Both the position numbers and the translations under genes were made by a program. DNA of 64,000 nt, taken from positions 1-64,000 of IMG/VR virus record IMGVR_UViG_3300025289_000026; one strand, written 5' to 3'. The notes under the pieces are model-generated. The model was not told where the DNA came from. It saw only the letters and a program-made list of their open reading frames with translations, and did no database searches. This DNA comes from a virus. This document shows positions 1,345-59,845 of the stretch, one piece after another; position 1 is the first letter of the stretch, and each line of letters begins with the position of its first letter.

Positions 1345-1980
1345 TCACTTTTTGGACAGATCCAAAATGCGATTGAGAACAGCGACCCCATCTTGATCCA
1401 GGTACTCTTGAGTCGAGTACTCGTCATAGACCTTCTTGAGCCACCCGGCGATAAGCCGAAGATCACTTATCTTGAACAGCATGAGGTACTTTTCCCGGAG
1501 CTGTTCACGCAGGGAATCCAATGCCACCTTCCCCACCATGTCGCTTACGTATAGGGTCATGCCGTCGCCGTCCCACTCCTGTTCGACGATAGTATGTTCA
1601 TTCTTACGGTAGTCGGAGTCCGTGGATATACGAAGTGATATCCGAGGGGTATCGATCGACTCGAATTCGTCGTCAACGGTAGTTTCCATTACGTCCGACG
1701 AAACTTTGGCGCCGATCCGAATATACTTTTTATCGATCAGGTACTTCAGCAACATAAAGGCGATCGCGTAGACCTCCGAGTTCTTGGACTTTCCGACTAC
1801 ACTCTTGACGAACTCGTCGATGTTCTCCTCGTACAGGGCCTCGGATTCCCAGGCAGCCTGCACCCAACCTTCCTTCAACATGTCAGCGAACTTACTCTTC
1901 AACTGCTTCGCGAGCAGAGGACGTATGTGTTCGTTGATAATATCATCGACCTCACTGTCGAGATCAAACTCCAGACTCAT
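1345..1980 (-). CDS. Hypothetical acidic protein
   Basis: 211-aa ORF with AAGGAG RBS; visibly lower GC than flanks. Confidence 0.8.
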   Translation of the reverse strand: MSLEFDLDSEVDDIINEHIRPLLAKQLKSKFADMLKEGWVQAAWESEALYEENIDEFVKSVVGKSKNSEVYAIAFMLLKYLIDKKYIRIGAKVSSDVMETTVDDEFESIDTPRISLRISTDSDYRKNEHTIVEQEWDGDGMTLYVSDMVGKVALDSLREQLREKYLMLFKISDLRLIAGWLKKVYDEYSTQEYLDQDGVAVLNRILDLSKK

Positions 1981-2005
1981 ATGGATACTCCTTGCCTAGA
2001 TTATG

Positions 2006-2031
2006 AAAAATAAAGGGCCAAGGGCGCCCTT
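2006..2031 (-). terminator. Intrinsic terminator
   Basis: Minus strand AAGGGC-GCCCTTG-GCCCTT then TATTTTT. Confidence 0.7.
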
Positions 2032-2058
2032 CTGTTTCGCTGAATCGCAAAGCCACTA

Positions 2059-2292
2059 TCACTCTATTCGCCAGATACGGCACCCCTGCAGTTTCCCTTC
2101 GGTGACATACCTGGACAAATATTTCCAACCGTTGGGGTTATGGTTGAATCCCCAGACTCGCCCACTTCCTTGACCGCTGTTGATGTTGGGGATTAGGAAC
2201 GAGTCCCCAACCTGCATCGAACCTATGGGGTACTTGGTCTTGGATCTGTTGGCTGGGATGGGCACACCTTTCTCTACCTGGAAAGTCGACAT
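2059..2292 (-). CDS. Small putative nucleic-acid-binding protein (paralog 1)
   Basis: VEKGVPIP...YP..MQVGDSF.IP...CRIWRI pattern shared with neighbour. Confidence 0.8.
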   Translation of the reverse strand: MSTFQVEKGVPIPANRSKTKYPIGSMQVGDSFLIPNINSGQGSGRVWGFNHNPNGWKYLSRYVTEGKLQGCRIWRIE

Positions 2293-2534
2293 TACTTGAT
2301 CCTCCAGATACGACAGTCCACCGGCGGGTTACCGACGGCACGAGCGCAGAACCGCTTGGTGTTGTTTGAGAGTTTGCGGAATTTGCTACACCGCGACCTC
2401 CCGGCCTTGACGTCCACCTTGGGGATCACGAACGAATCCCCAACCTCCATCTTTTCGTAGGGGTAGATGGATTCCAACTTCGGGCGTGCTGGCCCGGGTA
2501 TCGACACACCTGATTCAACTGTATAGGTAGGCAT
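2292..2534 (-). CDS. Small putative nucleic-acid-binding protein (paralog 2)
   Basis: VESGVSIP...YP..MEVGDSF.IP...CRIWRI; AAAGGAG RBS. Confidence 0.8.
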   Translation of the reverse strand: MPTYTVESGVSIPGPARPKLESIYPYEKMEVGDSFVIPKVDVKAGRSRCSKFRKLSNNTKRFCARAVGNPPVDCRIWRIK

Positions 2535-2622
2535 TGGTTACTCCTTTGGTTGCCTAGTTGAGGACACTGTTGACAATTCGTGGTTGTGGTCATCCTTTGT
2601 TGCCCCAGGGCCTTGCACAGCA

Positions 2623-3117
2623 CTATCGGGCTGCACGTTGTAATCTTTCACCAATCTGGTTGTCTGTCATGGGCTTGGGCGCAGGGAATCCATCGAGCGC
2701 GATGCCGAAGTAGGGCATGCCCCCGGGCATGACCTTCCACATGTCCCTGGGCAGCAGGAACCTGCAGTACCCCAGGGCAATGCCCAGCAGCAGGAGTTGC
2801 TCGATGTGCCGGTGTTCGCCCCAGTGGTAGCCGTCGCGCCGCAGGCACGCCTGGAGGAACGACCATCCATCGCCGGTACCCTGGTGGAATTGTTCCGGCA
2901 GTTGGCTGAGCATGTCCCGGACGTTCTGCCGTTGGGTCTCGAGTTGCTCACGGCAGAACCCCACGTTGGTTATCACGCCTGCGGCCAGCACGACATAGTC
3001 CGGCAACGGGGCGTCGGCCGCTTGGATCCGGCGCAACTCCTCCATCCTGGGGTCTTGTTCTTGGAACATCGAGGCTCCGAACGCCTGCTTCACGTTCTCG
3101 GCTGTAAGCTCATACAT
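2623..3117 (-). CDS. Hypothetical phage protein
   Basis: AAAGGAG RBS; 164 aa. Confidence 0.8.
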   Translation of the reverse strand: MYELTAENVKQAFGASMFQEQDPRMEELRRIQAADAPLPDYVVLAAGVITNVGFCREQLETQRQNVRDMLSQLPEQFHQGTGDGWSFLQACLRRDGYHWGEHRHIEQLLLLGIALGYCRFLLPRDMWKVMPGGMPYFGIALDGFPAPKPMTDNQIGERLQRAAR

Positions 3118-3164
3118 TGGTTTCTCCTTTGCAGATTGAAAAGTTGTTTTATTTCGTTCAAGTT

Positions 3165-3193
3165 CTTATGCGCACCAAAGCGTCTCGATACAC
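3165..3193 (-). promoter_or_regulatory. Putative bipartite promoter GTGTAT-N17-CATAAG
   Basis: Identical hexamers and 17-nt spacer also at 6733-6761 and 8798-8826; about 48 nt upstream of the 3117 start. Confidence 0.75.
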
Positions 3194-3199
3194 CTGCGG

Positions 3200-3208
3200 T
3201 GCTATACT
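3200..3208 (+). promoter_or_regulatory. Extended -10 promoter (TGC-TATACT), near-leaderless
   Basis: 8 nt upstream of ATG 3217; no SD. Confidence 0.6.
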
Positions 3209-3216
3209 GACGTCGT

Positions 3217-4008
3217 ATGGCTCGATACGTTTGGATCGTGTTGGCAATCTTGCTGGTGATCTTGGGCTACGGGGTAGCCAGGTACTACCGTGAGGCCGTG
3301 GCGCTCCAGGAACTCCTGTGGTTCAAGGACCGGGATAGCGCAGAGGTCAAGCGCAAGTACGACCGAGAGATCACGGTGCTGCGGGAAACCGCTGACGATC
3401 TCCGGCGGCAGATCGAAGAGGCACCCGCGGTCTCGGGTGCCAAGGTCAGGACGATCGTGAAGTATCGTGATCGTGAAGTCGTGAAGGACGTGACCACGGC
3501 GGTCGACCTGCCGCCCGGGTGTGCCGAGTGCCTCGCGGCCATCGAGATCCCGTACCATTTCGACAACTCCTACGTCGTGCTGGACGACACCCTCCGGTTC
3601 AACCCCCTGACCCAGGCGTTTGATTCGGTGGATCGCAAGTTCGTCCTGACGGATCGGTTCAACGATGCCGTCGTATCGACGGGGTTGCAGAACTTTGTCC
3701 AGCACGATGACCGATGGTTCCACGTCCGCTGGGCCGTGGGGGTGGACTACACCTGGGTGCCGATGGATAGGTTCCCTGGCCTTGGGGTTGGCCCGGCGGT
3801 CGAACTGGTGAATCTCAAGAAACTCCTGGGGGCCGAGGTGGGGATCAACCTTGCCCTCATGGTGGTGCCGAATGATATCAAAGACTCCCACGTGTCCGCG
3901 GTGCTGGACTGGAGGGTCGTGCGGAACGCCGCCCTGGGGGTCGGGTATGGACGTTCCATAGGTGACAACCTGGTGGCTGCCCAGGTGGTATTCTTTCCTT
4001 TCGACTGA
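3217..4008 (+). CDS. Membrane-anchored coiled-coil plus beta-rich protein (spanin-like candidate)
   Basis: N-terminal TM, charged helical segment, C-terminal alternating beta strands ending VVFFPFD. Confidence 0.6.
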   Translation: MARYVWIVLAILLVILGYGVARYYREAVALQELLWFKDRDSAEVKRKYDREITVLRETADDLRRQIEEAPAVSGAKVRTIVKYRDREVVKDVTTAVDLPPGCAECLAAIEIPYHFDNSYVVLDDTLRFNPLTQAFDSVDRKFVLTDRFNDAVVSTGLQNFVQHDDRWFHVRWAVGVDYTWVPMDRFPGLGVGPAVELVNLKKLLGAEVGINLALMVVPNDIKDSHVSAVLDWRVVRNAALGVGYGRSIGDNLVAAQVVFFPFD

Positions 4009-4010
4009 CC

Positions 4011-4289
4011 ATGCGGGCCGACATCACGAAGTTTCGGGTCAAGATTCTTCAGACGATCGATCGTGTGCCCCCGGGGTTTCGTGACCACGGGTGGACCGGG
4101 GGCATGCTGGTGGCCGAGCTGGGGATCCCGGAGACAACCTTGCGGCGCCACGTCAGGGCCCTTCGGGACGCGGGTCTCGTGCAGGACAGCATGACCGGCT
4201 ACCGATTACCCCCGGGCGTTAGCCAACGGCTCGATCTTGTCCTCCAGGCCGCCCGTGAGGGCAAGGCCCTGATGGTTCCCCCGGCCTAG
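4011..4289 (+). CDS. Winged-HTH DNA-binding protein
   Basis: LVAELGIPETTLRRHVRALRDAGLV HTH pattern. Confidence 0.75.
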   Translation: MRADITKFRVKILQTIDRVPPGFRDHGWTGGMLVAELGIPETTLRRHVRALRDAGLVQDSMTGYRLPPGVSQRLDLVLQAAREGKALMVPPA

Positions 4290-4320
4290 CTAAAGAAGAG
4301 GGGCTGATGCCGCCCCCCTT
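4289..4320 (-). terminator. Intrinsic terminator
   Basis: Minus strand AAGGGGGGC-GGCATCA-GCCCCTCTT 9-bp stem (one G-U), then CTTTAGC. Confidence 0.75.
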
Positions 4321-4362
4321 GCCACTTGACCCCTTGCCGACCATGGCGGGCCGGATTGTTTC

Positions 4363-4439
4363 CTACGCACCAGAGCGCTTTTGACCAGGGGCCGATGCGT
4401 AGCCCAGTGGGTTGCCTGGGTCTCCTATTTCCCCTGGTC
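4363..4439 (-). ncRNA. Unassigned structured RNA (pseudoknot with inserted hairpin)
   Basis: GACCAGGGG/CCCCUGGUC, CCCAG/CUGGG and CUACGCAUC/GGUGCGUAG helices within 77 nt. Confidence 0.55.
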
Positions 4440-4735
4440 TAGAGTTTGTTGTCTTTCATCACCATGACGAAGAGCTTGCGGAAGTCCTGGCGGTTTCCCC
4501 CAACTCCCTGGCGCAGCCAGTTGTAGAATTGCTTCCGCTTGGACAGCCGGGCCGCCGGCGCGGGGTTGATCGCGGCCTCGGCCCTGCGGTAGTGCCGGAC
4601 GCCAGTTGATTCTTGCTTTATCGAACGGCGGCGCGATACTGCGTTTTCGCCAACCATCTGGCCGTCGCGATATCGCGTCCGCAGGCGCCCCTGGACGACA
4701 GTCTTGTCGCCGTTTCGGTGCTGGATAATCTTCAT
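4439..4735 (-). CDS. Highly basic hypothetical protein
   Basis: AAAGGAG RBS; Arg/Lys rich, 98 aa. Confidence 0.7.
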   Translation of the reverse strand: MKIIQHRNGDKTVVQGRLRTRYRDGQMVGENAVSRRRSIKQESTGVRHYRRAEAAINPAPAARLSKRKQFYNWLRQGVGGNRQDFRKLFVMVMKDNKL

Positions 4736-4956
4736 GTGGTCTCTCCTTTGGTTGGCTGTGTTTCTTTGCTTGCCATCATGCTGGCGGCGTAGGCCTCCAG
4801 AATCCAGAGGATCCGGATGCCGAATTTCTGGAAAATCATCGAGAGTTCATCCCGCAGGGGCCGGGTGTCCTCACGCTTCGACACTTCGTTCCAGTATTTG
4901 GCCATCGACAGGACGGTCGTGGCTTCCTCGGGGGTCATGATGTTCTTTTGGTTCAT
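4732..4956 (-). CDS. Hypothetical protein
   Basis: Start MNQKNIM with AAGGAA RBS; ATGA overlaps. Confidence 0.6.
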   Translation of the reverse strand: MNQKNIMTPEEATTVLSMAKYWNEVSKREDTRPLRDELSMIFQKFGIRILWILEAYAASMMASKETQPTKGETT

Positions 4957-5366
4957 ACGTTTCCTTGTATCGTGGTGATGGGTAGTTGGCTCGGGTGTGG
5001 GAAATCTGCTGGTGTACGGCGCTCCCACTCCTTTGTACCTTGGGCTCGCTCTTCAGCCGTCCATTGGCGCTGAAGATGTCGAGTCATCTGCTGTTTCGTA
5101 CTCTTGTCCAGTATTTCGAGGTGGACCAACCGGGTGGATGTTTTCTCTCGCTGACCCGTGTTGACGAATACACGACCCGTCAGCGGATGGACGCCGGCAT
5201 AGTAGAAGGGCAGGTTCCCCACCATGCTCCGCAGGATACCTATACTCCTTTTGGTTTCGTAGATGTACCAACCCACGTGATCCCATAGGTGTTTGTCGGT
5301 CGTGGCGGCAGCGTTGAGATCAACGATACGGTACAGCAGTCGATGGTTTGTTTCTTTGGTCCCCAT
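4953..5366 (-). CDS. Hypothetical protein
   Basis: AAGGAG RBS, TAATG overlap. Confidence 0.7.
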   Translation of the reverse strand: MGTKETNHRLLYRIVDLNAAATTDKHLWDHVGWYIYETKRSIGILRSMVGNLPFYYAGVHPLTGRVFVNTGQREKTSTRLVHLEILDKSTKQQMTRHLQRQWTAEERAQGTKEWERRTPADFPHPSQLPITTIQGNV

Positions 5367-5893
5367 TACATCTCCTTGGGTTGAGAAGCTTTGAAGGCCA
5401 TTGGAAGTAGGGTGTAGAAACTCGTGTTGTGTAGCCCTTTATGAATCGTCCAGTAGCGACCGGTGCCGTTCCGCAAGAGGTTGAGTGTGATCTGCTTAGA
5501 TATACTGATCTGCTGAGTTGCCTTGATTATCTCTTGTTGGTTCGGTGCGTGTCCGTGCTGTATCGTGAGTTCGGCGATGGTCATTTTTAGTGTTTTCATC
5601 GCGTCGTTGTTTAACGCCTTACCCTGCTGTGTCTTGATGTCGAAGGTAGGGTTTTTCGTAGGGGTTACGTAAGGGATAATGCTACGGAACACATTGCAGA
5701 TGACACGGCCTCGTGGGCTGAGCATCACAAATTTCGTGACGAAAAGTTGAAGCGCTATACCGACCGCGATACCCCCTAGGAGTGATTGAACGGATACATT
5801 GTTCGCTGGGGTGCAGCCGGTCATCCAGATCAGGATCCAGGTGGTCCCGGTCACTAGGCAGGCGTTAGCCCACTTGTATTTTGACGGGTTCAT
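5366..5893 (-). CDS. Two-TM membrane protein with C-terminal soluble (possibly wHTH-like) domain
   Basis: Two hydrophobic segments; AT-richer codons; AAAGGAG RBS. Confidence 0.7.
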   Translation of the reverse strand: MNPSKYKWANACLVTGTTWILIWMTGCTPANNVSVQSLLGGIAVGIALQLFVTKFVMLSPRGRVICNVFRSIIPYVTPTKNPTFDIKTQQGKALNNDAMKTLKMTIAELTIQHGHAPNQQEIIKATQQISISKQITLNLLRNGTGRYWTIHKGLHNTSFYTLLPMAFKASQPKEM

Positions 5894-5897
5894 TGGG

Positions 5898-6431
5898 TTA
5901 CTCCTTTGGTAGCAGTTGATTCAGCCGGATGGCTTCTTTGACCCCTGGGTGATCCCGGGGCTCATCGACACGCACGAGCTGATATCCTCCAGGATAATGG
6001 GCCTGGTACAGGTCATGCTTACTTTCGCTCGACAGCCCGATGTCATGCCAGGCCCACATGTCGGTACTGGAGACGTGGCCGGCCAGTTGGTGCCCTGATT
6101 CCGCCAGCGCGACCGTCCTGACCCAATCGGTTCCTTCGCCCGCGTTGATGAAGACGTATATCTTGGGCTTCAGGGGATCCCCGATGGGTTCGAGTTCCTT
6201 CTGCTTCTTCTCCTCCCAGGCCGTCAGCTTTTCTTCCGACCCGTGGGAGCCGGCCGGCAGGTTCGTGTAGCACCACTGGACGATGTCGAACAGGTCGGCC
6301 CGGTTGTCCAGGTCGGCTACGGCGAATGCCCCGAACAGGTCGTTACACAGGACACGGGTCAGGAACCCCCCGGGCCGTAGCCCTTGGGTTGACCAGAGTT
6401 CCAGGGCCTCGATGTTCTCTTGAGTCATCAT
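5898..6431 (-). CDS. Hypothetical two-domain phage protein
   Basis: PGGFL..VL.NDL..A...AD..N N-terminal half plus a distinct C-terminal half. Confidence 0.8.
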   Translation of the reverse strand: MMTQENIEALELWSTQGLRPGGFLTRVLCNDLFGAFAVADLDNRADLFDIVQWCYTNLPAGSHGSEEKLTAWEEKKQKELEPIGDPLKPKIYVFINAGEGTDWVRTVALAESGHQLAGHVSSTDMWAWHDIGLSSESKHDLYQAHYPGGYQLVRVDEPRDHPGVKEAIRLNQLLPKE

Positions 6432-6688
6432 GCTGCCACCTGGGCTGTATCTCGGAAATCGTGGTGAGAGTGAAGTGAGCCCCAGGTGAGTTCAAGCACC
6501 AGGACGGCGGAAGTCCCGTCGGGACAGGTTTCGCTGATGGCCTTCTTGGCCGTTGGGAATGGCCCGTGCAACTTGCACCCAGATAGTGGGATCGGGAGTA
6601 CCGTCTTGCCTCCATGCTCGATGAACTGACAGACCTGACCGAACCCGTGGATGTTATCGTTCTGGTCAAACCTTGCGACGAAAAACAT
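6428..6688 (-). CDS. Hypothetical protein
   Basis: AAAGGAG RBS. Confidence 0.7.
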   Translation of the reverse strand: MFFVARFDQNDNIHGFGQVCQFIEHGGKTVLPIPLSGCKLHGPFPTAKKAISETCPDGTSAVLVLELTWGSLHSHHDFRDTAQVAA

Positions 6689-6732
6689 AGCAACTCCTTT
6701 GTAATTGGGAAAAGATTTTGTTCTCTCGAGTC

Positions 6733-6761
6733 CTTATGACGACCCAAGAGTCCCAATACAC
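6733..6761 (-). promoter_or_regulatory. Putative bipartite promoter GTGTAT-N17-CATAAG
   Basis: GTGTATtgggactcttgggtcgtCATAAG, about 45 nt upstream of the 6688 start. Confidence 0.75.
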
Positions 6762-6776
6762 TGGCGGGCGCCGCGG

Positions 6777-7634
6777 TTATGTCGAGAGGATTCGAACGGC
6801 TTCGTTGTAACGTCGAGCGCGATCTGCAAGCCCGTGGTCTCCGCCGTTGATCTTGCGGGTCATGTTGGTCACGTCCCCTTGATCCGCCAGGGCGCTGAGG
6901 CCGCGGGCGTTCCAATACCACGTGGCTGACAATAGCGCGGGCTCCTTGTCCAACAGGATTTCGGGTGTCTTGACGAGTCGGTCGTCCCCGTAGATGGCTT
7001 TGCTGCAGGCAAGGTAGTTGTCCTTCCCAGTGAGTTGCACCAGCCCGCGACCGCGGAAACGGTATCCGTCGCCCGAGGTCTCGGGCCCGTTGCCCATCCG
7101 GTTGGCATAGACCTTGTTCGCGATCTTCTCGGGTGCCTTGGCATACGAGGCTGCCAACGTCACGCTGGTGAAATACTTGGGGAACGTCTTGGCAAGACCG
7201 TCGGTGCTATAGTTGAGGTTTTCCTGCAGCACTTTGAAATCACTGGACTCGTGGGCACACTGGGAGAGGAACCCCGCGACCCTTTTGATCGACGTGACCT
7301 TGGCCCCAGGGAGTACCTTGCCGATCGGTTGAAACCACTGGCCACCCTGGGGGTTACCCGGGAGGATAGCCGTGAGCTTCTTTTCGGTGAAGGGGAAGTC
7401 GAACCCCAGGGCTGCGGGTTGGACGGTCGGGGGGAACATGGCGTTCCATGTGGTATCGTCGATCTGTCCGGTGGCCGGGAGCTTTTTTACGGTTTGGAAT
7501 TCCTTTACCTTGCCTTCGGTGCCACCGCCGAACTGACCATCGTCCTTGATCCCAAGGGCCCGTTGGGCCTTCCGGACATTCTCGATAACCTTGGGATCCA
7601 GGTTGGTGATCCCGTCGCCGCGTTTCAGAAACAT
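6777..7634 (-). CDS. Endolysin: peptidoglycan-binding domain plus GH19 catalytic domain
   Basis: DGQFGGGTE..VKEFQ...LPATGQID (PG-binding); FLSQCAHES, ENLNYS, YANRMGNG, FRGRGLVQLTGKDNY, KINGG (GH19). Confidence 0.95.
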   Translation of the reverse strand: MFLKRGDGITNLDPKVIENVRKAQRALGIKDDGQFGGGTEGKVKEFQTVKKLPATGQIDDTTWNAMFPPTVQPAALGFDFPFTEKKLTAILPGNPQGGQWFQPIGKVLPGAKVTSIKRVAGFLSQCAHESSDFKVLQENLNYSTDGLAKTFPKYFTSVTLAASYAKAPEKIANKVYANRMGNGPETSGDGYRFRGRGLVQLTGKDNYLACSKAIYGDDRLVKTPEILLDKEPALLSATWYWNARGLSALADQGDVTNMTRKINGGDHGLADRARRYNEAVRILST

Positions 7635-7640
7635 GGCTAC

Positions 7641-7646
7641 AGTATA
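7641..7646 (-). promoter_or_regulatory. -10 element TATACT for a leaderless endolysin mRNA
   Basis: GGGG-TATACT-GTAGCC-ATG; no SD. Confidence 0.55.
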
Positions 7647-7655
7647 CCCCAGGGA

Positions 7656-7690
7656 GCTAAAAAGAACTGGGGGCTATCCCCTGGTTCTTT
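7656..7690. terminator. Hairpin terminator
   Basis: AAAGAACTGGGGG-CTAT-CCCCTGGTTCTTT; minus-strand tail TTTTTAGC. Confidence 0.6.
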
Positions 7691-7868
7691 CGGGCATTCG
7701 CCCGCCGAGCTCTTGGATGAGCCGGTTGAGTTGTTCCTCCGTGGGTTCTCCCACGAGTTCACGGAATGTGAACTGGCAGATGTCGAATACATCTTCCCGC
7801 GGATTCTGCTGAACACGTTTCCGTACCTCATGCCGGATGATCGACATGGTTTGTTTATCGATTTTCAC
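7674..7868 (-). CDS. Hypothetical protein
   Basis: ATGA overlap within a gene chain. Confidence 0.6.
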   Translation of the reverse strand: MKIDKQTMSIIRHEVRKRVQQNPREDVFDICQFTFRELVGEPTEEQLNRLIQELGGRMPERTRG

Positions 7869-8089
7869 TTGGCTACCGGTTGGTTAGGGGTTGAGGGTCT
7901 ACAGGTGCATTCGCGGGCTCGGCTGTCCTCCACCCGGACGGTCATGAGGGACCCGCCGGTCATGAGGCATTGGCGCCCGCAGGCTTCCAGGAATTCGACC
8001 TCGTGGTTTACCGGTCGCGTGACCCAGACGGCCGCCACGACCGCGAGGCTAGCGATCGCGATGCTGATGGCTTGCCACATGGTGTCCAT
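7865..8089 (-). CDS. Small membrane-anchored Cys-containing protein
   Basis: N-terminal TM, CxxxC...CxC. Confidence 0.6.
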   Translation of the reverse strand: MDTMWQAISIAIASLAVVAAVWVTRPVNHEVEFLEACGRQCLMTGGSLMTVRVEDSRARECTCRPSTPNQPVAK

Positions 8090-8255
8090 GTTGTAACGCT
8101 CGGGCCGCGGCCGCGAGGTCTTCGAGGTCTTGATTGGTCATCTGGATCGCGGTCTCCATGACATCATTATCCTCGATTTCGAACGTCTCGGCCGCCAGGC
8201 TCGCGAGGTATGGGTCACTCTCCAGGATGTCGAACCTCCGGAGCACCGGGCTCAT
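8049..8255 (-). CDS. Small acidic hypothetical protein
   Basis: Start MSPVLRR, ATGA overlap with upstream gene. Confidence 0.5.
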   Translation of the reverse strand: MSPVLRRFDILESDPYLASLAAETFEIEDNDVMETAIQMTNQDLEDLAAAARALQHGHHVASHQHRDR

Positions 8256-8587
8256 ACTGCCACCCCGATGTCCTGGAGCCGTTGGGCAGCCAGTCCTTTG
8301 GCCACCTTGAGATTCTCGAGGATCTCGCGTTTCTGGTTCGTGAGGGTGGTGCCCTTGAGGAACTGGGTCGTCGCGATGATCCGGATGGCCGCGAAGTATA
8401 CCCCCGTGACCACGATGTCCATCGGCACGACCTCGGGCCCCAGGTCGATACCCACGTCTTGACGGACCTTCTGGTACCCGACCTTCATCTCGACCCAGCA
8501 GAGCATGGGGAAGAGGACAATCCAGAGGACAAGCGACACGGTGATCCACGCGATCTTGGTGATGATGTTGTTGAACAGGTTGTACAT
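8252..8587 (-). CDS. Two-TM membrane protein
   Basis: Start MYNLFNN with AAAGGAAA RBS; two hydrophobic helices. Confidence 0.7.
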   Translation of the reverse strand: MYNLFNNIITKIAWITVSLVLWIVLFPMLCWVEMKVGYQKVRQDVGIDLGPEVVPMDIVVTGVYFAAIRIIATTQFLKGTTLTNQKREILENLKVAKGLAAQRLQDIGVAV

Positions 8588-8667
8588 TTGGTTTCCTTTT
8601 GTTGTTGATGATTCCATAGTGCCCGGGGGCAAGCGAGTGCCCACCCCCGGGACAAATGAGCGAGGGG

Positions 8668-8748
8668 TCAGTCGGCAAACAGGCTGTAGCCGAAGTACCC
8701 CAGGACCCCCGAGAGGATCCACAAGCCCAATGCTGTCGTTTTGTTCAT
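8668..8748 (-). CDS. 26-aa hydrophobic peptide MNKTTALGLWILSGVLGYFGYSLFAD
   Basis: AAGGAG RBS; first ORF after the 8798-8826 promoter; below the ORF-track length cutoff. Confidence 0.65.
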   Translation of the reverse strand: MNKTTALGLWILSGVLGYFGYSLFAD

Positions 8749-8797
8749 GATCTTTCTCCTTGTTGGTTTTGGCGAGAAATAATTTCCTCGTTAATTC

Positions 8798-8826
8798 CTT
8801 ATGACCCCTCTGGAGAGCCAATACAC
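8798..8826 (-). promoter_or_regulatory. Putative bipartite promoter GTGTAT-N17-CATAAG
   Basis: GTGTATtggctctccagaggggtCATAAG, about 50 nt upstream of the 8748 start. Confidence 0.75.
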
Positions 8827-8834
8827 AGGTACGG

Positions 8835-8840
8835 TATAAT
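8835..8840 (+). promoter_or_regulatory. -10 element TATAAT for a leaderless mRNA
   Basis: TATAAT 6 nt before ATG 8847; no SD. Confidence 0.6.
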
Positions 8841-8846
8841 GGCTCC

Positions 8847-9569
8847 ATGGGTACGTTCCCATGGATCAAGGTCGCGGCCCTCGGGGGCCTTGGGGCCATC
8901 CTCCCGTTGATCGTCGAGTTCGTGGGGCTCGACGGCGCCGCTGTCGCGGGGTTCCTCGCGGCCCCGGACGCCGCGGTTGTGCTTGGCCATGGCATCAGGG
9001 CCACGGGATACTTCTTCATCGGGGCTCTGTGGACAGGACTCCAGTACAAAGATCTGGTGAAGCCGAGCCATGCGGTTCAGCTCGGGATCGTGGCCCCCAT
9101 GACGGTCTCGGCCATGTTGGCCGGGCAGGCCAGTGGGCCCGAGGCCCAGGGGCACCAGGGGTATCGATTCACTGGGGTTGCGTACGCAGAAGATTCTTCA
9201 ACACCGCCCACCAGGTTCCCCAAGCTTGAGTTTGGTGACCGTATGTTTCATTCGTTTTCCCGCAAGACCCCGGAGGTCACCTGGTGGGTCATGAGCCCCG
9301 AGGTCACGGCCGACCAGGCCAACGGCTTGATGCTCAAGCTGGCGCCCCCGCCAGTCCAGGGGAAGAAGCGCAGTACCCCAAAGGATACCCCATTGATTCC
9401 CAACATTACCCCATTGGTCATCGGGCCTCACGAAGATCAAGTAGGCTACGTGGTGGTCCTGGGGCATTCAATGGGCAGGTCGGCGGCGGAGCAGTTGTTC
9501 GCCGCGGTTCGAAAGATCCCTGGGTTCGAAACTTTCCGGTTGGTCTCGTTCCCCAAGGTACAGCCGTAG
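8847..9569 (+). CDS. Multi-TM membrane protein with C-terminal SPOR-like domain
   Basis: About three N-terminal hydrophobic segments; YVVVLG...RSAAEQL...VRK.PGF pattern. Confidence 0.6.
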   Translation: MGTFPWIKVAALGGLGAILPLIVEFVGLDGAAVAGFLAAPDAAVVLGHGIRATGYFFIGALWTGLQYKDLVKPSHAVQLGIVAPMTVSAMLAGQASGPEAQGHQGYRFTGVAYAEDSSTPPTRFPKLEFGDRMFHSFSRKTPEVTWWVMSPEVTADQANGLMLKLAPPPVQGKKRSTPKDTPLIPNITPLVIGPHEDQVGYVVVLGHSMGRSAAEQLFAAVRKIPGFETFRLVSFPKVQP

Positions 9570-9608
9570 TTGTTGTCCAATTGGCCAATCTGCTAAGCTG
9601 TAGTTCAC

Positions 9609-9875
9609 ATGAGTCTGGCGAAACGAGCATCCGACTACGCCGCGGGGCAGCCCGAACAAGAGGATCGCGCCCGTGGGCTCAAGAACGTGGCCCTGGTGGG
9701 CGGGGGGGTGCTGGCCGGTACCAAGTTGACCAAGATGATGCTAAAACGAAAGGGCGGCCAGGGGGCTGCTAACCTGTTGCTTCGTGCTCGGAAGGGTCGA
9801 CCGGCCGTCGTGAAGGCCGAACGAGTATTTCGTCCGAGCTTGTTTCAATACACTGGAAAGGCGAAAATATCATGA
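9609..9875 (+). CDS. Basic K-x-A protein, putative internal head protein
   Basis: Starts MSLAKRAS; Gly-rich hydrophobic patch; upstream TGC-TAAGCT. Confidence 0.65.
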   Translation: MSLAKRASDYAAGQPEQEDRARGLKNVALVGGGVLAGTKLTKMMLKRKGGQGAANLLLRARKGRPAVVKAERVFRPSLFQYTGKAKIS

Positions 9876-10636
9876 GCCTAGCTATCAAGCTCTCCAAGGA
9901 GGCCCAGGGCACCACCGTGGTGTACGGGGGTCAGCAGGAGAAGAGGCCGAGCCTATTGGGCCGAGTGGCCAAGGGGGTGGCGCTCGGAGGCCTGGCCCTC
10001 GGGGGAGTGGCGGCACTTCGGAGCGGAGCCATCGGGGCAGGGCGTGCGTCCTACGGGATCCGGAGGGCCGCGGGCCAAGGGGTAGGGGAATCGTTGGGTG
10101 GCTCGGCCAGGCACGGGGCTGGCCTGATGGGCGAGGAGATCAAGTCCTGGGGCCAGAAGATCAAGAGTTCCGTCACCCCGGGGGAAGGCGCGGGTCCTGT
10201 GCCGGCTGCAATTCGGAACGCCCGGGCCGCCACCGAGACCCCTCGGATGCGGAGGGCGAGGCAAGTGTTTCAAGGGACCCAATCGCCTAACCCCGCGACC
10301 CTTGGGACCCAGGTGTCTGTTGCTGCCAAGGGTGCCCGTAGGGCCATGGCCGGTAAGGCCGACCCGACGTCTCTTCGGTATCGACTGTTTGGCAAGGGGG
10401 CAGACATGACCTCGGCCCTCGAGTTCATGCACCTGTATGCTCAAGAGAAGACCGCGGGCCGAGGGCCAGTGGTTGTGACGAAACCGGTGGTCCAGCCGCC
10501 TACCGAAGACAAACTTGAATCCGCGCTGGATTACGTGCGGGTCAATCAACTGGGCCAAGGGGCCGCCACCATGGTCAAGCAGGAACATGACCACTCGTTG
10601 GCCCGCCGGGCAATCCAGAACTCCATCTCTCGCTAA
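9872..10636 (+). CDS. Basic Gly/Ala/Arg-rich K-x-A protein, putative internal head protein
   Basis: MSLAIKLSKEAQ, EKTAG; GxxxG hydrophobic segment. Confidence 0.7.
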   Translation: MSLAIKLSKEAQGTTVVYGGQQEKRPSLLGRVAKGVALGGLALGGVAALRSGAIGAGRASYGIRRAAGQGVGESLGGSARHGAGLMGEEIKSWGQKIKSSVTPGEGAGPVPAAIRNARAATETPRMRRARQVFQGTQSPNPATLGTQVSVAAKGARRAMAGKADPTSLRYRLFGKGADMTSALEFMHLYAQEKTAGRGPVVVTKPVVQPPTEDKLESALDYVRVNQLGQGAATMVKQEHDHSLARRAIQNSISR

Positions 10637-10874
10637 GCGGGCAGGTGATCCTCGGCTCGCCTCGGCCGTCGGGTCCACCATGGCGGCGAACCCTGGGCTC
10701 AAGGGTCCATTGGCTCGCGTGAGGGCCGGGGCCTTGAGTGCAGCGGACTTCATGGCGCTGTATGGTGGCCAGATGCGAGGAGCGTTCCTGGGGGCCAAGG
10801 CTAAGCACGGGCCACGACATGGCTTTTCGAACAAAAGTGTGGCAGACTATGGCAAGAGCCTTACGGAACCTTAA
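10587..10874 (+). CDS. Basic K-x-A protein (or frameshifted tail of the upstream gene)
   Basis: Contains SLAKRAG; overlaps the upstream gene in the +1 frame. Confidence 0.5.
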   Translation: MTTRWPAGQSRTPSLAKRAGDPRLASAVGSTMAANPGLKGPLARVRAGALSAADFMALYGGQMRGAFLGAKAKHGPRHGFSNKSVADYGKSLTEP

Positions 10875-10927
10875 GTTTCAGTTTGCACTCCGATGAATCC
10901 AGACTACAATCTCAATGGGAGCACAAG

Positions 10928-11290
10928 ATGAAAGCATCACAAGTGAATCGTGGCGTGGCCTCCAGCCTGATCTTGGGACATCTCAAGGCCGCGGGGTTTG
11001 TCCAGAACCAGGGGAAGGACCAGGAGAAACGAGCCAGTGGCCTTGATCCCAAGGTGAAGCTTGGGCTCCGGAAGGAAGCGGAATCCAGGGTGTTGGAAAC
11101 CGTGGCGGTCCAGATGTACCAGGACCCCATCCTCGCGAGAATGCTAGAGTCGGGGTTCATCAAGCAGGCGGCCCTGTTGGCCGAGGGCCGGTTTTCAGAC
11201 TGCGAAACCCTTGACAAACTAGCGTCCCTCGGGCCCCAGGGGATCCAGAAGGTCGCGTCCCAAGGATTCGAGCGCCTCGGGGCCGTATGA
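10928..11290 (+). CDS. K-x-A-rich protein, putative head protein
   Basis: KAA, KRA, KEA, KQA, KLA, KVA in about 120 aa; GGGAG RBS. Confidence 0.7.
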   Translation: MKASQVNRGVASSLILGHLKAAGFVQNQGKDQEKRASGLDPKVKLGLRKEAESRVLETVAVQMYQDPILARMLESGFIKQAALLAEGRFSDCETLDKLASLGPQGIQKVASQGFERLGAV

Positions 11291-12024
11291 CCGAGGAATC
11301 CCGGGCCTCCCGGGAGCACGGGCTCTGGGAAGCCTGGCGAGCCAGTGGGAAGCATCCCTCGGCCCTCCGGCCCCTTGTCAACTCATTGGCCCCCCTGGTT
11401 CACAAGACTGTCAACACCTACGCGGCCGCCGATGTCGCGACCCCGGCGCTCCTGACCCAGGCGGAGAACCAGTTGATCCAGGGGCTCCACAGTTACGACC
11501 CTACCAAGGGGGCCACCCTCTCGACCCACTTGAACTGGCAGATGCGGGGTGTGGGTCGATTTGTCGAGAAGCACCAGAACCTCGCCAGGATCCCGGGGTC
11601 AAGGATTCGGCACATTGGCAAGGTCCAGTCGGCGACCAAGAGCCTGACGGAGTCGCTTGGACGTGCCCCCACGTTGTCCGAGTTGGCCCGAAAGTCCAAG
11701 GTACCAAAACATCAGGTCGAGAAGCTCCAGCGGGAGATCCGGCCGGTCCATATCCTTGGGATGGATCTGGGGAGCGAGGGCATGACCCTGTCGGACCTCG
11801 GGACCGGGGGCTTTAGCCCAGATCGTGAGCGTCTTGAGTTGCTTTACCCAGACCTTACCCCGATGGAACAGCAGGTCGTGGACTACTCGGTCGGGCGGGC
11901 GGGCAAGCCGGTGATTGAGTCGACTGGGCAATTGGCTGGCCGACTCAAGGTCTCGCCTGCTAGAATAAGTAACATCAGGGCCTCGATTACCAAGAAACTC
12001 ATGAATCTCCATTGGATACGCTGA
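11287..12024 (+). CDS. Sigma-70 family RNA polymerase sigma factor
   Basis: Region 2 (SYDPTKGATLSTHLNW), RIP, region 3 (LGRAPTLSELA), region 4 HTH (QLAGRLKVSPARISNIR). Confidence 0.9.
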   Translation: MTEESRASREHGLWEAWRASGKHPSALRPLVNSLAPLVHKTVNTYAAADVATPALLTQAENQLIQGLHSYDPTKGATLSTHLNWQMRGVGRFVEKHQNLARIPGSRIRHIGKVQSATKSLTESLGRAPTLSELARKSKVPKHQVEKLQREIRPVHILGMDLGSEGMTLSDLGTGGFSPDRERLELLYPDLTPMEQQVVDYSVGRAGKPVIESTGQLAGRLKVSPARISNIRASITKKLMNLHWIR

Positions 12025-12025
12025 C

Positions 12026-12232
12026 GTGCCGGTCGTAAGTAACACGGCTCTCGTGACCTTCCAGGCAGACTTCCGAGCCTTCGTCGCGGCCGAGAGGTTG
12101 CGGTTGGAGCAGGACAAGAGTTTCCTTCAGGAGATCAAGGTCGGGGAGGAAGAGACGTCGATCGCCGAGTTGTCCGACAGCTTAGCCGCGGCCTCGGGTA
12201 GTGAATTGGAACAATTGCTCGGAGGAACATAA
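12026..12232 (+). CDS. Hypothetical protein
   Basis: Tight operon packing. Confidence 0.6.
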   Translation: MPVVSNTALVTFQADFRAFVAAERLRLEQDKSFLQEIKVGEEETSIAELSDSLAAASGSELEQLLGGT

Positions 12233-12234
12233 AG

Positions 12235-12645
12235 ATGGCCGTGACGCCCACAGAAATCATCCTGCAGCCCAATAGCCCCGAGACCCTGATGGTTGGGTCT
12301 TCCATCAATGCGTTTGTTCAGCACCGGGTGATGGGCCGCAAGACCGCGGTCACGGGAGCGGACAACACCAGTGCCCCGATCGAGCGGGTGGGGGCCGAGG
12401 TCGTGACCATCTATGTCGCGGGAACCTCGGGGGATGCGTACGAGATCCAGGCAGCCTACAGACCCGTTTACCTGGCAAACGGTACCCTTGATGTTGCGTC
12501 CACCGGGTGGGTGGCCCTGGCCTCTGGATCGATCCCTGCGACGGGTGTCGCGTCCCAGAGCTTTCAGGACGTGATGCCGGCATTTCGGGTCAAGCGTACC
12601 GTGGGGGTTGGGGCCTTTACCGTTTACGCATGGTTCATATCATAA
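12235..12645 (+). CDS. Putative virion beta-sandwich protein
   Basis: GGAGG RBS; beta-rich. Confidence 0.7.
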   Translation: MAVTPTEIILQPNSPETLMVGSSINAFVQHRVMGRKTAVTGADNTSAPIERVGAEVVTIYVAGTSGDAYEIQAAYRPVYLANGTLDVASTGWVALASGSIPATGVASQSFQDVMPAFRVKRTVGVGAFTVYAWFIS

Positions 12646-13310
12646 TGCCTTTTCTTGCTAATGATTTTGAAATCTCGAGCGCCTTTGGCCCGAGTTACTA
12701 CGGGGTTCAGGATCTTCCTGAACTCGAGGCTTTGTCACCCCCGGGGGACAATAGCTTCGCTTTTGTCGAAAGCGAGGGTTCGTGGTATTTCTACGATGCC
12801 CTGAGCATCACGGCGCCCTCAAGCCCCACGGTCATTGTTCCGGATGCCATCACGCCCCCGGATCCTGGCCGTTGGATCCAGAGTTCCGCTGGTCCCCCGC
12901 CGCCCCATAGCCACGTGATGACCGATATCTCTGATCTCGACGCCTCGGGGGTTCCCTATGCCCCAGGGGTCGTGGGGGATTGGGCTTCAGTCCCCACGGT
13001 CGTGGCGGAGGCGTTGGACGAAGCCATCAAGCGGCGCTTGAATGTTGTCAACACCGCGGTGAATTATTTGGCGACATTCAGCGATGGGTTGATCCGGGTG
13101 GCGGCCGCCGGGGTGGTGATCAGTTTGCCCGCTAGCCCGGGGGCAGGAGATGTTGGACGCTCCATCGTGGTAAAGCGGGTCCACACGGGTGCCACGTCGT
13201 CGGTTTCTGGAAATGGCAACACGATCGATGGATCGGCCAGCAGGACCCTGGTGTCCAGGTATGATGCCGAAGTTTACACGTGGACCGGTAGCGAATGGGA
13301 TGTGAATTAA
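12645..13310 (+). CDS. Putative fibre/decoration protein
   Basis: TAATG overlap; PGRW module, H.H.M.DISDL fibre motif, C-terminal NGNTIDG domain. Confidence 0.7.
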   Translation: MPFLANDFEISSAFGPSYYGVQDLPELEALSPPGDNSFAFVESEGSWYFYDALSITAPSSPTVIVPDAITPPDPGRWIQSSAGPPPPHSHVMTDISDLDASGVPYAPGVVGDWASVPTVVAEALDEAIKRRLNVVNTAVNYLATFSDGLIRVAAAGVVISLPASPGAGDVGRSIVVKRVHTGATSSVSGNGNTIDGSASRTLVSRYDAEVYTWTGSEWDVN

Positions 13311-14075
13311 ATGTCACACAAGACACCCACGACGATCGCTGAAGAACTGCCGGCCAACAGTATTGGCACCACCGACATTCTTGACGGTGCCATCACGGAC
13401 GCCAAGTTCCGCAACAGCCAGGCGTTCTCCGTCATCGGGCGTGCCCTGGGTTCCGCCGGGGTGCCGGCGGACATCGTGGCCGCCGTGACGGATCGTGTCC
13501 TGGCCTACAGCGGTGGTGCCCTGGTGTTCCAGCAGGTCGCCACGGCGATGCTGCAGAACAACGCCGTGACGAATGCCAAGTTGGCCCAGATGGCGGCGAA
13601 CACCTTCAAGGTCAACAACACGGGGTCACCGGCTGATCCGGTGGACGCCACCGTGGCCCAGGTGTTGGCCATATTGGGGATCTCGGCTGGCAAGCGATTC
13701 ATTACTATCCCGATCTACGGGGCCTCGGGGTCTGGGAACGTCTTTGGATCGACAACGAGTACGTCGTACACCGTGATCGCGAGGTTTCTGTATCCTGGGT
13801 CTACGACTTTTGGTACGCCCTCGGGCATTAAGGCCGATTTGTTTTCGAATAACCCAGGGGTGAGGGGTAACATCAAGGTGCGGGACGTCACCAACGCCCT
13901 GGATATCGCGGTAGTGTTTGGAAGCTCAGATCTGCCCACGACCCCTGGGATCATAACCCTCGGGGCGATATCCAATGTCCCGGTGTCCGCGGCACTTTTC
14001 GAGGTGCAGGTACGCCGCACCGTTGGGGTGGGGGCTGACGAAATCAGATGTTCAACCGTAGCGATGGAGTTCTGA
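13311..14075 (+). CDS. Putative fibre protein
   Basis: AITDAK / [14 protein letters not shown] fibre-shaft repeats plus C-terminal beta domain. Confidence 0.7.
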
Positions 14076-14076
14076 C

Positions 14077-14718
14077 ATGACGTTGAAAAAGTACCGTAGA
14101 CGTTGTAGCACCGAGGCCGGGTATGTGTACTCCGATTTTCGTACCGACGCCCAGGGCGCTCCGTCGGTGTGTCCCAACGACTCCGCCCACACGCTGGATC
14201 CTGAGGACGAGTGGGTAGTGGTCGAGAGCTACACCCAAGAGGTTCCCATCGGCGCCGAGAGCGGTCAAGTGTTGGTCAACACGGGCCAGCACAGCCATGG
14301 ATACGCAGTCCATATGAAGGGCCATCGAATCGTGATCCCCTCGGGGTCGGCGGTAGCGGTAAAAGACTACTTCAAGTTCAGCAAAGGAGACCCTCTTGTC
14401 GACTACCCCGTGGAGATATTTTCTGGTGCCATTAGGGTATCGGGTGCCCAAGACGGTGATATTATCGACGTCGACATGGTGGTGAAGGACGGCGGCGGCC
14501 CGGGAGTCGATATCGTGGCCGCGAGTTTCTTGAGTTCGTTTTACCCCAACGGAACTGCCGTCGGGGTCTACGAACTCCATGATTTCGTTCCGCCCGACAA
14601 GGCCAAGCTGCTGCCCGCGGGAATATACTTGCGGACGATCTACACGCCGGTGGCGGCACTGCCCAACGATGTCGTGGTCAAGGCGTTGGTCACGGCGTTC
14701 AAAGACCCGTTGGTGTAG
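14077..14718 (+). CDS. Hypothetical protein with N-terminal C-x-TE...CPN...H motif
   Basis: YRRRCSTE...PSVCPNDSAHTLD. Confidence 0.75.
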   Translation: MTLKKYRRRCSTEAGYVYSDFRTDAQGAPSVCPNDSAHTLDPEDEWVVVESYTQEVPIGAESGQVLVNTGQHSHGYAVHMKGHRIVIPSGSAVAVKDYFKFSKGDPLVDYPVEIFSGAIRVSGAQDGDIIDVDMVVKDGGGPGVDIVAASFLSSFYPNGTAVGVYELHDFVPPDKAKLLPAGIYLRTIYTPVAALPNDVVVKALVTAFKDPLV

Positions 14719-14796
14719 GGTGGCCGGGGGGGCGTTGTCTGGCTTTGGGTACCTGTGGGGTATTGCCGTCAGAAATATCGGGTATAGGGTTTGCAC

Positions 14797-15012
14797 ATGG
14801 GTATAGAGGAAGACATCGAGAATGTGAAAGAGTCGGATACAGAGTTCAAGCTGTACACGAATGGAACCCAGGAACACACCGTGATGCTGTGGCACAAAAG
14901 GATTGTCGGGCACCTTAAACATATGTTTTTCCGTAAAGGAGCGGGTACAAAAACAGTGGACTTCGTCGTGGAGATCGAGGTAGACGACGACGAGCTAGGA
15001 AACGGGAAATAG
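14797..15012 (+). CDS. Hypothetical protein
   Basis: Short ORF in a plus-strand run. Confidence 0.55.
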   Translation: MGIEEDIENVKESDTEFKLYTNGTQEHTVMLWHKRIVGHLKHMFFRKGAGTKTVDFVVEIEVDDDELGNGK

Positions 15013-15028
15013 TCTCAAAGGAAATCTT

Positions 15029-15424
15029 GTGGAACTTTTTTCAAACCCCACCGGTGCCCTCCGGCAGGTATCGAAGATCGTGCTGATCGCCACGGGGGTC
15101 TTCTGGGGGCTATATGACGTCATCCCGATGCTCAACCAGGGGCGGGGTGATACGTTGTCGGAAAACCTTCGTGACTGGAGCCGCAGGGCCTGGGTGTTGC
15201 CGTGGTTCTGGGGGGCGCTGAGTGCTCATCTGTTTCTCAACACCGGGCAACCCCAAGACTACCGGCAACGGTTCCTCATCGCCGCCGGGGTGTTGGCGGC
15301 GTTGATCGTGGCGAATGTCGTGACTTGGTACGGCCTGCGTTGGGAAGCCGGGGTCGGCTGGAGGACAGGGTTGTTTTTCCTCGGGATCGCCGCAGGGTTG
15401 CTCCTGTGGAGTCAGAACCAGTAG
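15029..15424 (+). CDS. Four-TM membrane protein
   Basis: Four hydrophobic segments. Confidence 0.7.
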   Translation: MELFSNPTGALRQVSKIVLIATGVFWGLYDVIPMLNQGRGDTLSENLRDWSRRAWVLPWFWGALSAHLFLNTGQPQDYRQRFLIAAGVLAALIVANVVTWYGLRWEAGVGWRTGLFFLGIAAGLLLWSQNQ

Positions 15425-15466
15425 ACTAAAGAGGAACCACCAAGGCAATGCACCAAGGGATACCAG

Positions 15467-15700
15467 ATGGACAAATTGATCGAAGTCCTGATCGCCAACG
15501 GCCCCATGGGGTTGGTCGCCGGGGTCATGTTCTACCTCCTGATGGTGGAGAAGAAGGAGCACAGGGAAACCCGCGTGACTTTGGCAGACATTTATAGCAA
15601 ATACGAAGTCGTGGCCGACAGGTCTATCGAGGCGATGTCCAGGGTCACGACCCTGATTGGCGAGCGTCTTCCCAACCGTAACCAAACCCAAGGGGGCTGA
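15467..15700 (+). CDS. Putative single-TM holin (BhlA/UviB-like)
   Basis: NGPMGLVAGVMFYLL followed by a charged helical tail; AAGGGA RBS. Confidence 0.55.
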   Translation: MDKLIEVLIANGPMGLVAGVMFYLLMVEKKEHRETRVTLADIYSKYEVVADRSIEAMSRVTTLIGERLPNRNQTQGG

Positions 15701-15701
15701 C

Positions 15702-15974
15702 ATGTCGGCGCATCCACAGGTCTATGCAACCAAGGGTCTGGATATGCAGGAGTTCGTCCGGCGGGCCGCCGATACCCACGCGAGGCTCCTGGAGACAGCG
15801 GACCACCTGGCCGCCGTGATCGATGACGCCAAAGCCATGATGCCGGCCTCGGGCGTCCTGGGGGTCGTGCTGCAGTGCCGGGGATGTGGTGAGCAGTACC
15901 TCGAGCGCCGTCGCCCCGATGCCACCGAATACGGGTGTTGTTCATCCCGGTGTTACCGCGGTGCGGATTCCTGA
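15702..15974 (+). CDS. Hypothetical protein with C-terminal zinc finger
   Basis: CRGCG...CCSSRC. Confidence 0.65.
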   Translation: MSAHPQVYATKGLDMQEFVRRAADTHARLLETADHLAAVIDDAKAMMPASGVLGVVLQCRGCGEQYLERRRPDATEYGCCSSRCYRGADS

Positions 15975-59844: not shown

Positions 59845-59845
59845 T

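Follow-up and report, generated by a model that had tools for sequence, protein, structure and literature searches.

A DNA window of 64,000 nucleotides (nt) from a soil phage, positions 1-64,000 of the 78,502-base contig IMGVR_UViG_3300025289_000026 in IMG/VR, carries a small set of promoters built on the box CATAAG, together with the gene of a sigma factor that may read them. The best overall explanation is a self-contained transcription system, in which this sigma factor and a phage-encoded beta-beta' RNA polymerase would be packaged in the particle and would read the CATAAG promoters. The probability of this reading is put at roughly 0.5. An earlier note on the same DNA had proposed that the sigma factor is made late, packaged and injected, an interpretation that is plausible and partly supported.

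The promoter motif is GTGTAT-N17-CATAAG, where N17 is a spacer of 17 nt. It occurs in three exact copies, all on the minus strand: P1 (3165-3193), P2 (6733-6761) and P3 (8798-8826). No copy appeared in 100 shuffles of the sequence. The looser pattern GTG-N20-CATAAG has four matches against 0.23 expected, and relaxing the first box in this way adds P4 (58809-58837, minus strand), which reads GTGAAA-N17-CATAAG. The three exact copies and one variant described in the earlier note were reproduced.

Each site stands at a similar distance from a start codon on the same strand. The CATAAG box of P1 lies 47 nt before the ATG at 3117, that of P2 44 nt before the ATG at 6688, that of P3 49 nt before the ATG at 8748, and that of P4 37 nt before the ATG at 58771. 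Every leader contains a strong ribosome-binding site, CAAAGGAG or CAAGGAG, before the ATG. The sites had been placed 38-50 nt before the first gene of a run; the distances stand, at 37-49 nt, but P4 is internal to the replication block and not at its head.

Such placement is not expected by chance. CATAAG occurs 13 times on the two strands of the contig, and the promoter sites, each on the minus strand, account for four of these. The zone 30-60 nt upstream of starts called by the ORF (open reading frame) scoring of this analysis, the source of the gene map, makes up about 1.4% of strand positions. By the authors' own arithmetic, the probability that at least four of 13 boxes fall there is approximately 3e-5. 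A weight matrix made from P1-P4 gives these sites scores of 28.7-35.0, while the highest score elsewhere in the contig is 0.9. Neither the matrix nor relaxed patterns found weaker copies of the motif in the contig beyond P1-P4.

As housekeeping promoters the four sites are poor. At -35 they match 2 of 6 positions, at -10 both T-12 and T-7 are absent, and a scan for sigma-70 promoters did not call them. The idea of a private class unlike housekeeping promoters is borne out in these respects. P1-P4 are very probably promoters of a phage-specific class, with a -35-like GTG(T/A)A(T/A), a 17-nt spacer and a -10-like CATAAG. Hairpin promoters of the N4 type were also considered for these sites and rejected; P1-P4 have no common hairpin, and they fold no better than shuffled sequences.

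The sigma factor is encoded at 11287-12024 on the plus strand. It is a 245-residue protein of the sigma-70 family that covers regions 2.1-4.2 without region 1.1, and it is the ortholog of gp10 of Salmonella phage Arash. Pfam recognizes Sigma70_r3 (38.5 bits against a cut-off of 25.3), and the PHROGs match is phrog_351, RNA polymerase sigma factor. Sigma70_r2 scores 13 bits, under its 24-bit cut-off, and Sigma70_r4 has no match in Pfam; the parts of the factor that contact DNA and core polymerase have therefore diverged. A profile built from this sigma factor together with ten homologues of 50-64% identity aligns with primary sigma factors of the SigA type (8h3v_G, E 1.9e-12) from region 2.1 through the helix-turn-helix of region 4.2. 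The AlphaFold (AF2) model has a mean pLDDT of 76.5, with the C-terminal helices present, and the top 50 Foldseek matches of this model are all sigma factors, aligned over about 240 columns. The family is large, with 157 representative clusters at E up to 1e-30, and homologues 57% and 55% identical are found on contigs of 112 kb and 167 kb. Judged from sequence and predicted fold, the ORF is a genuine sigma-70-family gene whose product has regions 2, 3 and 4, in agreement with the claim that the window encodes a sigma factor including region 4. Both DNA-reading domains are present in diverged form.

A possible partner for this factor is encoded on the same contig. A portal-like gene (62902-64761, plus strand) runs across the end of the window at 64000. 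Three nt after it starts a single ORF on the same strand, at 64765-73599 of the contig and beyond the window, which encodes a fused beta-beta' RNA polymerase of 2944 residues with two intein/LAGLIDADG inserts. Its domains include Rpb2_3 and Rpb2_6 of beta and Rpb1_1, Rpb1_2, Rpb1_4 and Rpb1_5 of beta'. In bacterial RNA polymerase, sigma domains 2 and 4 dock on the beta' clamp helices and the beta flap tip, and these segments of the phage polymerase can still be aligned to the bacterial enzymes.

The sigma factor and the polymerase also occur together. Seven genomes were compared: this contig (G000), five IMG/VR contigs (G001-G005) and Arash. The IMG/VR contigs were found through the sigma factor, at 31-34% identity, and all five also encode beta-beta'; a gp10-like sigma and a beta-beta' polymerase occur together in all seven genomes. 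The polymerase is one intein-free frame of about 2050 residues in three of the five IMG/VR relatives. A search of five records, of which one is 94% complete, gave no alpha subunit. Among GenBank phages, the top matches are identical for the two proteins, namely Arash and the Vibrio phages D69, D148 and D181. Gene order is shared as well. In G000, G001, G002, G005 and Arash, the sigma gene and a baseplate-J-like gene downstream of it share a strand, and in G000, G001, G003, G004 and Arash the polymerase comes immediately after the portal gene. The earlier note had the sigma factor redirecting the host core enzyme. With a beta-beta' polymerase encoded beside the portal-like gene, and accompanying the sigma factor in every genome compared, this part of the proposal has lost ground; the partner of the sigma factor is probably the phage polymerase rather than the host core. 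It is also reasonably likely that P1-P4 are read by the factor at 11287-12024.

Further evidence comes from related boxes in other phages. In Arash, a search for enriched intergenic k-mers picks out GGTATAAG, which has 31 copies in the genome; 19 copies lie in the sampled upstream regions, against 0.93 expected. The copies are almost exclusively on the minus strand, before mainly non-structural genes. Sites of the form GG(T/C)ATAAG fall largely outside ORFs in Arash (30 of 31), G002 (19 of 24), G005 (6 of 7) and G001 (6 of 10), in genomes with intergenic fractions of 6-18%. The GC content of these genomes ranges over 42-67% (42% in G002, 48% in G001 and 67% in G005). The final base of the box is specific: intergenic regions of Arash contain TATAAG 49 times and TATAAT 4 times, which argues against a simple reading by host sigma-70.

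The sequence upstream of the box differs between genomes. Sites in G001 have GTGAAA or GTAAAA 16-19 nt upstream, and the -35 box of P4 matches it. Sites in G005 have a CCGGTT-like box, and those of Arash and G002 no clear -35. The motif scan of genome and relatives that had been suggested was successful in part: four sites stand out in the contig, and GG(T/C)ATAAG marks intergenic regions in four of seven relatives, but the exact pattern GTGTAT-N17-CATAAG has no match among viral contigs. On this comparison, the promoter code has drifted within the lineage.

Two further observations concern Arash. About 30 sites there have the form GGTATAAG-N4-GTGTAA and precede mainly non-structural genes. 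The gene gp9, immediately upstream of the sigma gene gp10, has one GGTATAAG 11 nt before it.

A second class of promoter-like boxes precedes genes that are presumably late. At the endolysin gene and several plus-strand genes, TAnnnT boxes lie 5-8 nt before ATG codons that have no Shine-Dalgarno (SD) sequence. These had been described as TGnTAnnnT promoters of structural and lysis genes. The boxes are confirmed, but TG occupies the extended -10 position in only about half of them. The form TAnnCTGTAG occurs 2-9 nt before SD-less ATGs at 7637-7646 on the minus strand and at 9594-9603, 26181-26190, 61060-61069 and 62178-62187 on the plus strand. The box at 61060-61069, TATACTGTAG, heads the block that leads from the gene at 61140 through the portal-like gene to the polymerase, and the box at 62178-62187 within this block is GATTCTGTAG. 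The same TA..CTGTAG box heads the endolysin gene (6777-7634, minus strand; PG_binding_1 and GH19-like), where the arrangement at 7637-7646 is TATACTGTAG-cc-ATG. The block containing the sigma gene is headed by a TATAAT box at 8835-8840 (plus strand), 6 nt before the SD-less ATG at 8847, and includes the TAnnCTGTAG-class box TAAGCTGTAG at 9594-9603.

TAnnnT boxes are found at the endolysin gene, the sigma block and the portal-polymerase block, so the genes for sigma and polymerase fall into the same promoter class as those for lysis and virion proteins. Given that the endolysin gene has this class of box too, the sigma factor and the polymerase are probably late products, made together with the virion proteins. 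The assignment of the sigma gene to a late-type, virion-linked gene block is supported.

Arash has a late box of its own, CTAAAAT(A), 21-53 nt before the genes that follow the terminase (gp2 onward), before the portal-polymerase unit and before gp216, the C-terminal part of beta'. It also precedes several structural operons, the endolysin gene, which is an isolated plus-strand gene in a minus-strand region, and two minus-strand genes called structural by mass spectrometry. The TA..CTGTAG box of the present phage is not conserved in its distant relatives. The earlier note had late genes transcribed from housekeeping promoters. The late box of Arash looks phage-specific, and Arash has a second, apparently non-virion sigma factor; a late role of the host sigma is therefore unsupported, and it is doubtful that the host factor reads the late promoters of this phage. 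The two classes of box in Arash often stand back-to-back as CTTATACC-CTAAAATA, for example at 109220-109260, 137600-137640 and 139380-139420.

In the proposed mechanism, the sigma factor and the single-chain beta-beta' polymerase would be made late, alongside the virion proteins, from TAnnnT-headed units with leaderless mRNAs. Both would be packed into the capsid and then injected with the DNA. The injected sigma-polymerase would fire the CATAAG promoters first, expressing the accessory operons (P1-P3) and the replication genes (P4). More tentatively, the packaged holoenzyme could be a minimal one of beta-beta' and sigma with no alpha or omega, using a private two-box code with G at -7 and leaving a second, leaderless class for the late genes.

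Packaging can be judged from the cultured relative. In the part of the Arash particle mass spectrometry covered here, the beta protein gp206 ranks first in number of spectra, beta' gp216 is present, and the sigma factor gp10 is found at 100% coverage with 24 peptides and 467 spectra (PMC10585845). The second sigma factor, gp196, is not among the particle-table entries covered (PMC10585845). As analysed here, these data are suggestive of packaging but not proof of it. The neighbourhoods of the sigma gene with the baseplate-J-like gene and of the polymerase with the portal gene, each in five genomes, add weight. For the present phage, packaging of the sigma factor is given even odds.

A sequence bias near the sigma gene may be related to packaging. 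The ORF at 10928-11290 (plus strand, 120 residues) overlaps the start of the sigma gene with its stop codon, and the ATGA overlap that had been described is real. Six of its 10 lysines are in K-x-A, against 1.2 expected. A 337-residue protein at 61140-62153, encoded two genes upstream of the portal-like gene, has 12 of its 17 lysines in K-x-A, against 1.7 expected. The sigma factor itself has no such bias (1 against 1.1 expected). The bias could be a maturation-protease or packaging signal. The 120-residue product had been called a putative head protein; its richness in K-x-A is confirmed, but Pfam and PHROGs lend the head label no support.

Several points weigh against a packaged sigma-polymerase system. 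The Arash particle preparation contained 116 of about 250 proteins, including ribonucleotide reductases (PMC10585845). Carry-over is raised by the Arash authors themselves, and their paper does not mention caesium chloride (PMC10585845); contamination of the preparation is likely. A sigma-70-like site, TTTGCA-17-TACAAT (10882-10910, plus strand), lies 18 nt before the ORF at 10928 and is the nearest candidate promoter of the sigma gene, so host polymerase might already transcribe this gene early in infection. An estimated 43% of the genome is present in the contig, which breaks off in the terminase gene, and the missing part may hold a second sigma factor and further promoters. The second, more canonical sigma factor of Arash, with a weak counterpart in G002, could be the one that reads the box. 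The box is also patchy, as it is not enriched in G003, in G004 or in Vibrio phage D69, where GGTATAAG was tested, and some boxes of G005 lie inside the polymerase gene region. TATAAG is one base from the universal TATAAT, and host sigma-70 could account for part of the conservation across genomes. Finally, no RNA run is listed as containing this DNA; the 16 listed runs are soil or sediment metagenomes, probably of DNA.

The rival explanation that survives best is a middle switch without packaging. Here, host polymerase would transcribe the plus-strand block, and the new sigma factor, with the host core or with newly made phage polymerase, would then fire the CATAAG promoters. Such a switch would resemble that of SPO1 gp28 or phiEco32 gp36. 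Sequences that host polymerase might use are at hand, with TGGAGA-18-TATAAT before 8847 and TTTGCA-17-TACAAT before the sigma operon, but sigma-70-like matches in the sigma-gene region are not above chance (4 found, 5.8 expected). The TAnnnT boxes look like housekeeping -10 elements, and the Arash particle proteome may be contaminated; however, throughout the lineage the sigma and polymerase genes lie within virion modules. The order of events is a further difficulty. The endolysin, portal-like and tail genes share the promoter class of the plus-strand block, and they would be expressed before the replication genes. For this reason the middle switch is rated below the packaged system, and it is regarded as unlikely.

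In another model, host polymerase with a host sigma factor, housekeeping or alternative, would read the CATAAG boxes, and the phage sigma factor would serve other promoters. (T/C)ATAAG is indeed near TATAAT, and GTAT-type -35 and CATA-type -10 boxes may resemble some promoters of forespore-type sigma factors. However, T-12 and T-7 are both missing in this phage, Arash prefers the final G over T (49 against 4), and the sigma-70 scan passed over P1-P4. The same box also occurs in phages of 42-67% GC, which presumably have different hosts. Reading by a host sigma factor is on these grounds improbable.

A role for a second phage sigma factor is given a similarly low chance. In this model, a gp196-like factor encoded in the missing part of the genome would read CATAAG, and the gp10-like factor would be employed otherwise, for instance at the late TAnnnT class. 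The CheckV estimate of 43% completeness leaves room for such a gene, and the earlier assumption that the phage has a single sigma factor is not secure for the same reason. Region 2.4 of gp196 in Arash is canonical, and a weak homologue of this factor occurs in G002. No homologue was found in G000, G001, G003, G004 or G005, all of which are incomplete records, yet G001 and G005 carry the box; only the gp10-like sigma is present in every genome compared. It is very improbable that P1-P4 are instead operators at which a DNA-binding protein acts, or vestiges of an intergenic cassette that was duplicated, as the spacer parts GAC..CTT.GGT common to P1 and P2 could indicate, given two non-palindromic boxes with no conserved hairpin, a constant orientation and distance to SD-led starts, the spacing of sigma-70-family promoters and a related box before genes in distant relatives.

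The genes downstream of P1-P3 form short minus-strand runs. P1 lies back-to-back with a plus-strand TATACT at 3203-3208 and precedes the run 1345-3117, of which the first gene (2623-3117) matches phrog_26039 and is 39% identical to Arash gp53c. P2 is located just past the endolysin stop codon, and its first gene (6428-6688) heads a six-gene run that ends at 4439. P3, back-to-back with the plus-strand TATAAT at 8835-8840, precedes the run 7674-8748. The gene assignment at P3 differs from that of the earlier note: the first ORF (8668-8748) encodes a 26-codon hydrophobic peptide, MNKTTALGLWILSGVLGYFGYSLFAD, and a GC-rich hairpin follows it before the next gene (region 8626-8748, minus strand). 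The peptide and hairpin could represent a small membrane peptide or an attenuator-like leader. For the genes next to the sigma gene and those behind P1-P3, neither Pfam nor PHROGs gives a function. On the minus strand at 2005-2032, a terminator-like hairpin with a T-run leads directly into CATAAT, and the ATG of 1345-1980 lies 25 nt further on. A weak fifth promoter may be present here, with terminator and promoter in succession as in G002.

P4 overlaps the stop codon of the ORF 58824-59180 within the minus-strand replication block (45435-61078). Its first gene is 58331-58771, and the same strand runs on into replication genes, among them a DnaB-like helicase (56139-57452) and a family A DNA polymerase (50605-53667) with an intein and a LAGLIDADG domain. 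A RecA-like gene belongs to the block as well. The 78-kb fragment contains three inteins, one in the family A DNA polymerase and two in the RNA polymerase. The plus-strand blocks are 3217-4289, 8847-15974 (which contains the sigma gene), 16828-45386 (which includes baseplate-J-like and beta-helix giants) and 61140 to the contig end. The divergent region 61079-61139, between the replication block and the portal-side block, contains the palindrome GGTTACCCCGGGGTACC and no CATAAG box. At the matching junction in G001, a TATAAG box reads into the replication genes.

The last part of the contig (78033-78502) falls inside the N-terminal part of the large terminase, and the first (1-470) holds a 5'-open ORF with the staphylococcal-nuclease-like motif LLGIDTPE, which has no counterpart in the relatives. 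A circular contig with the terminase across its ends was considered and rejected; the first ORF is nuclease-like by motif, and the ends do not overlap. Among GenBank phages, no near-identical match of positions 3000-13000 was found. Metagenome scans with the first gene after P1 and with the sigma alignment gave no confirmed relatives.

The closest known system is Salmonella phage Arash (OQ632216; PMC10585845). Its sigma factor gp10 (28% identity), RNA polymerase gp206 and gp216 (30%), portal gp204 and terminase are orthologous to those found here. In both phages the sigma gene belongs to a terminase-to-structural operon, and the polymerase gene comes immediately after that of the portal. Both have a (T/C)ATAAG-type box on mainly non-structural minus-strand genes and another box on structural genes and the endolysin gene, with the two classes back-to-back. 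Arash differs in its size of 181 kb and in its polymerase of two chains, where one chain with two inteins is found here. Instead of CATAAG with a -35 GTGTAT it has GGTATAAG, which lacks a clear -35 and is followed downstream by GTGTAA, and its late box CTAAAAT(A) is used with SD-led mRNAs, rather than TAnnnT with leaderless ones. It also has the second sigma factor gp196. The Arash paper does not mention promoters (PMC10585845).

The multi-subunit-RNAP-encoding Caudovirales (mReC) are a phage clade known from metagenomes, whose defining feature is beta and beta' genes of the bacterial type (Weinheimer and Aylward 2020, PMC7481178). Sigma factors, virions and promoters are not mentioned in that paper (PMC7481178). 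The present phage has the same type of polymerase, and the contig is likely a member of the clade. Features of the Arash-like/mReC lineage found here are the beta and beta' domains, the gp10-like sigma, the portal-polymerase synteny and a related terminase.

Late-made, injected polymerases are known from other phages. In N4 and in the jumbo phages phiKZ and AR9, a polymerase produced late in infection is packed into the capsid and injected, after which it transcribes early genes from promoters specific to the phage; the late genes of N4 return to the host enzyme. The same logic is proposed here from the genes. Such a scheme would not reverse all known cascades, as N4 and the phiKZ/AR9 phages already inject polymerase for early genes. 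What differs is the machinery. The enzymes of phiKZ and AR9 are divided into 4-5 pieces, without a subunit of the sigma-70 family. The virion polymerase of N4 is a single-subunit, T7-like enzyme that uses hairpin promoters, whereas the promoters here have no hairpin and are of the classical two-box form with a sigma factor.

Phage sigma-70-family proteins with phage-specific promoter consensus sequences are likewise known, for example gp28 and gp34 of SPO1, gp55 of T4 and gp36 of phiEco32 and 7-11. Those phages have no polymerase core of their own, and their sigma factors are made early or in the middle of infection. The present contig, in contrast, encodes a fused beta-beta'; the core is co-inherited with the sigma factor, and the sigma gene lies among virion genes. 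A comparative review describes polymerase-encoding jumbo phages as having no sigma factor and sigma-encoding phages as borrowing the host core enzyme (PMC7824862). The lineage described here has both its own polymerase and a sigma factor.

The logic of a late-made, injected polymerase is not new, being known from N4 and phiKZ. Should the proposal be true, however, it would describe the first virion RNA polymerase that depends on a sigma factor. A pair that is packaged and recognizes a two-box promoter would amount to an autonomous bacterial-type transcription system of very small size, with two proteins and neither alpha nor omega. Such a system would bear on how sigma factors and core enzymes recognize each other and on how -10 specificity is recoded, with G at -7, and its use for orthogonal expression would also be of interest. 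Arash makes the idea testable now, being a cultured relative that shares the gene layout and has about 30 copies of a related box.

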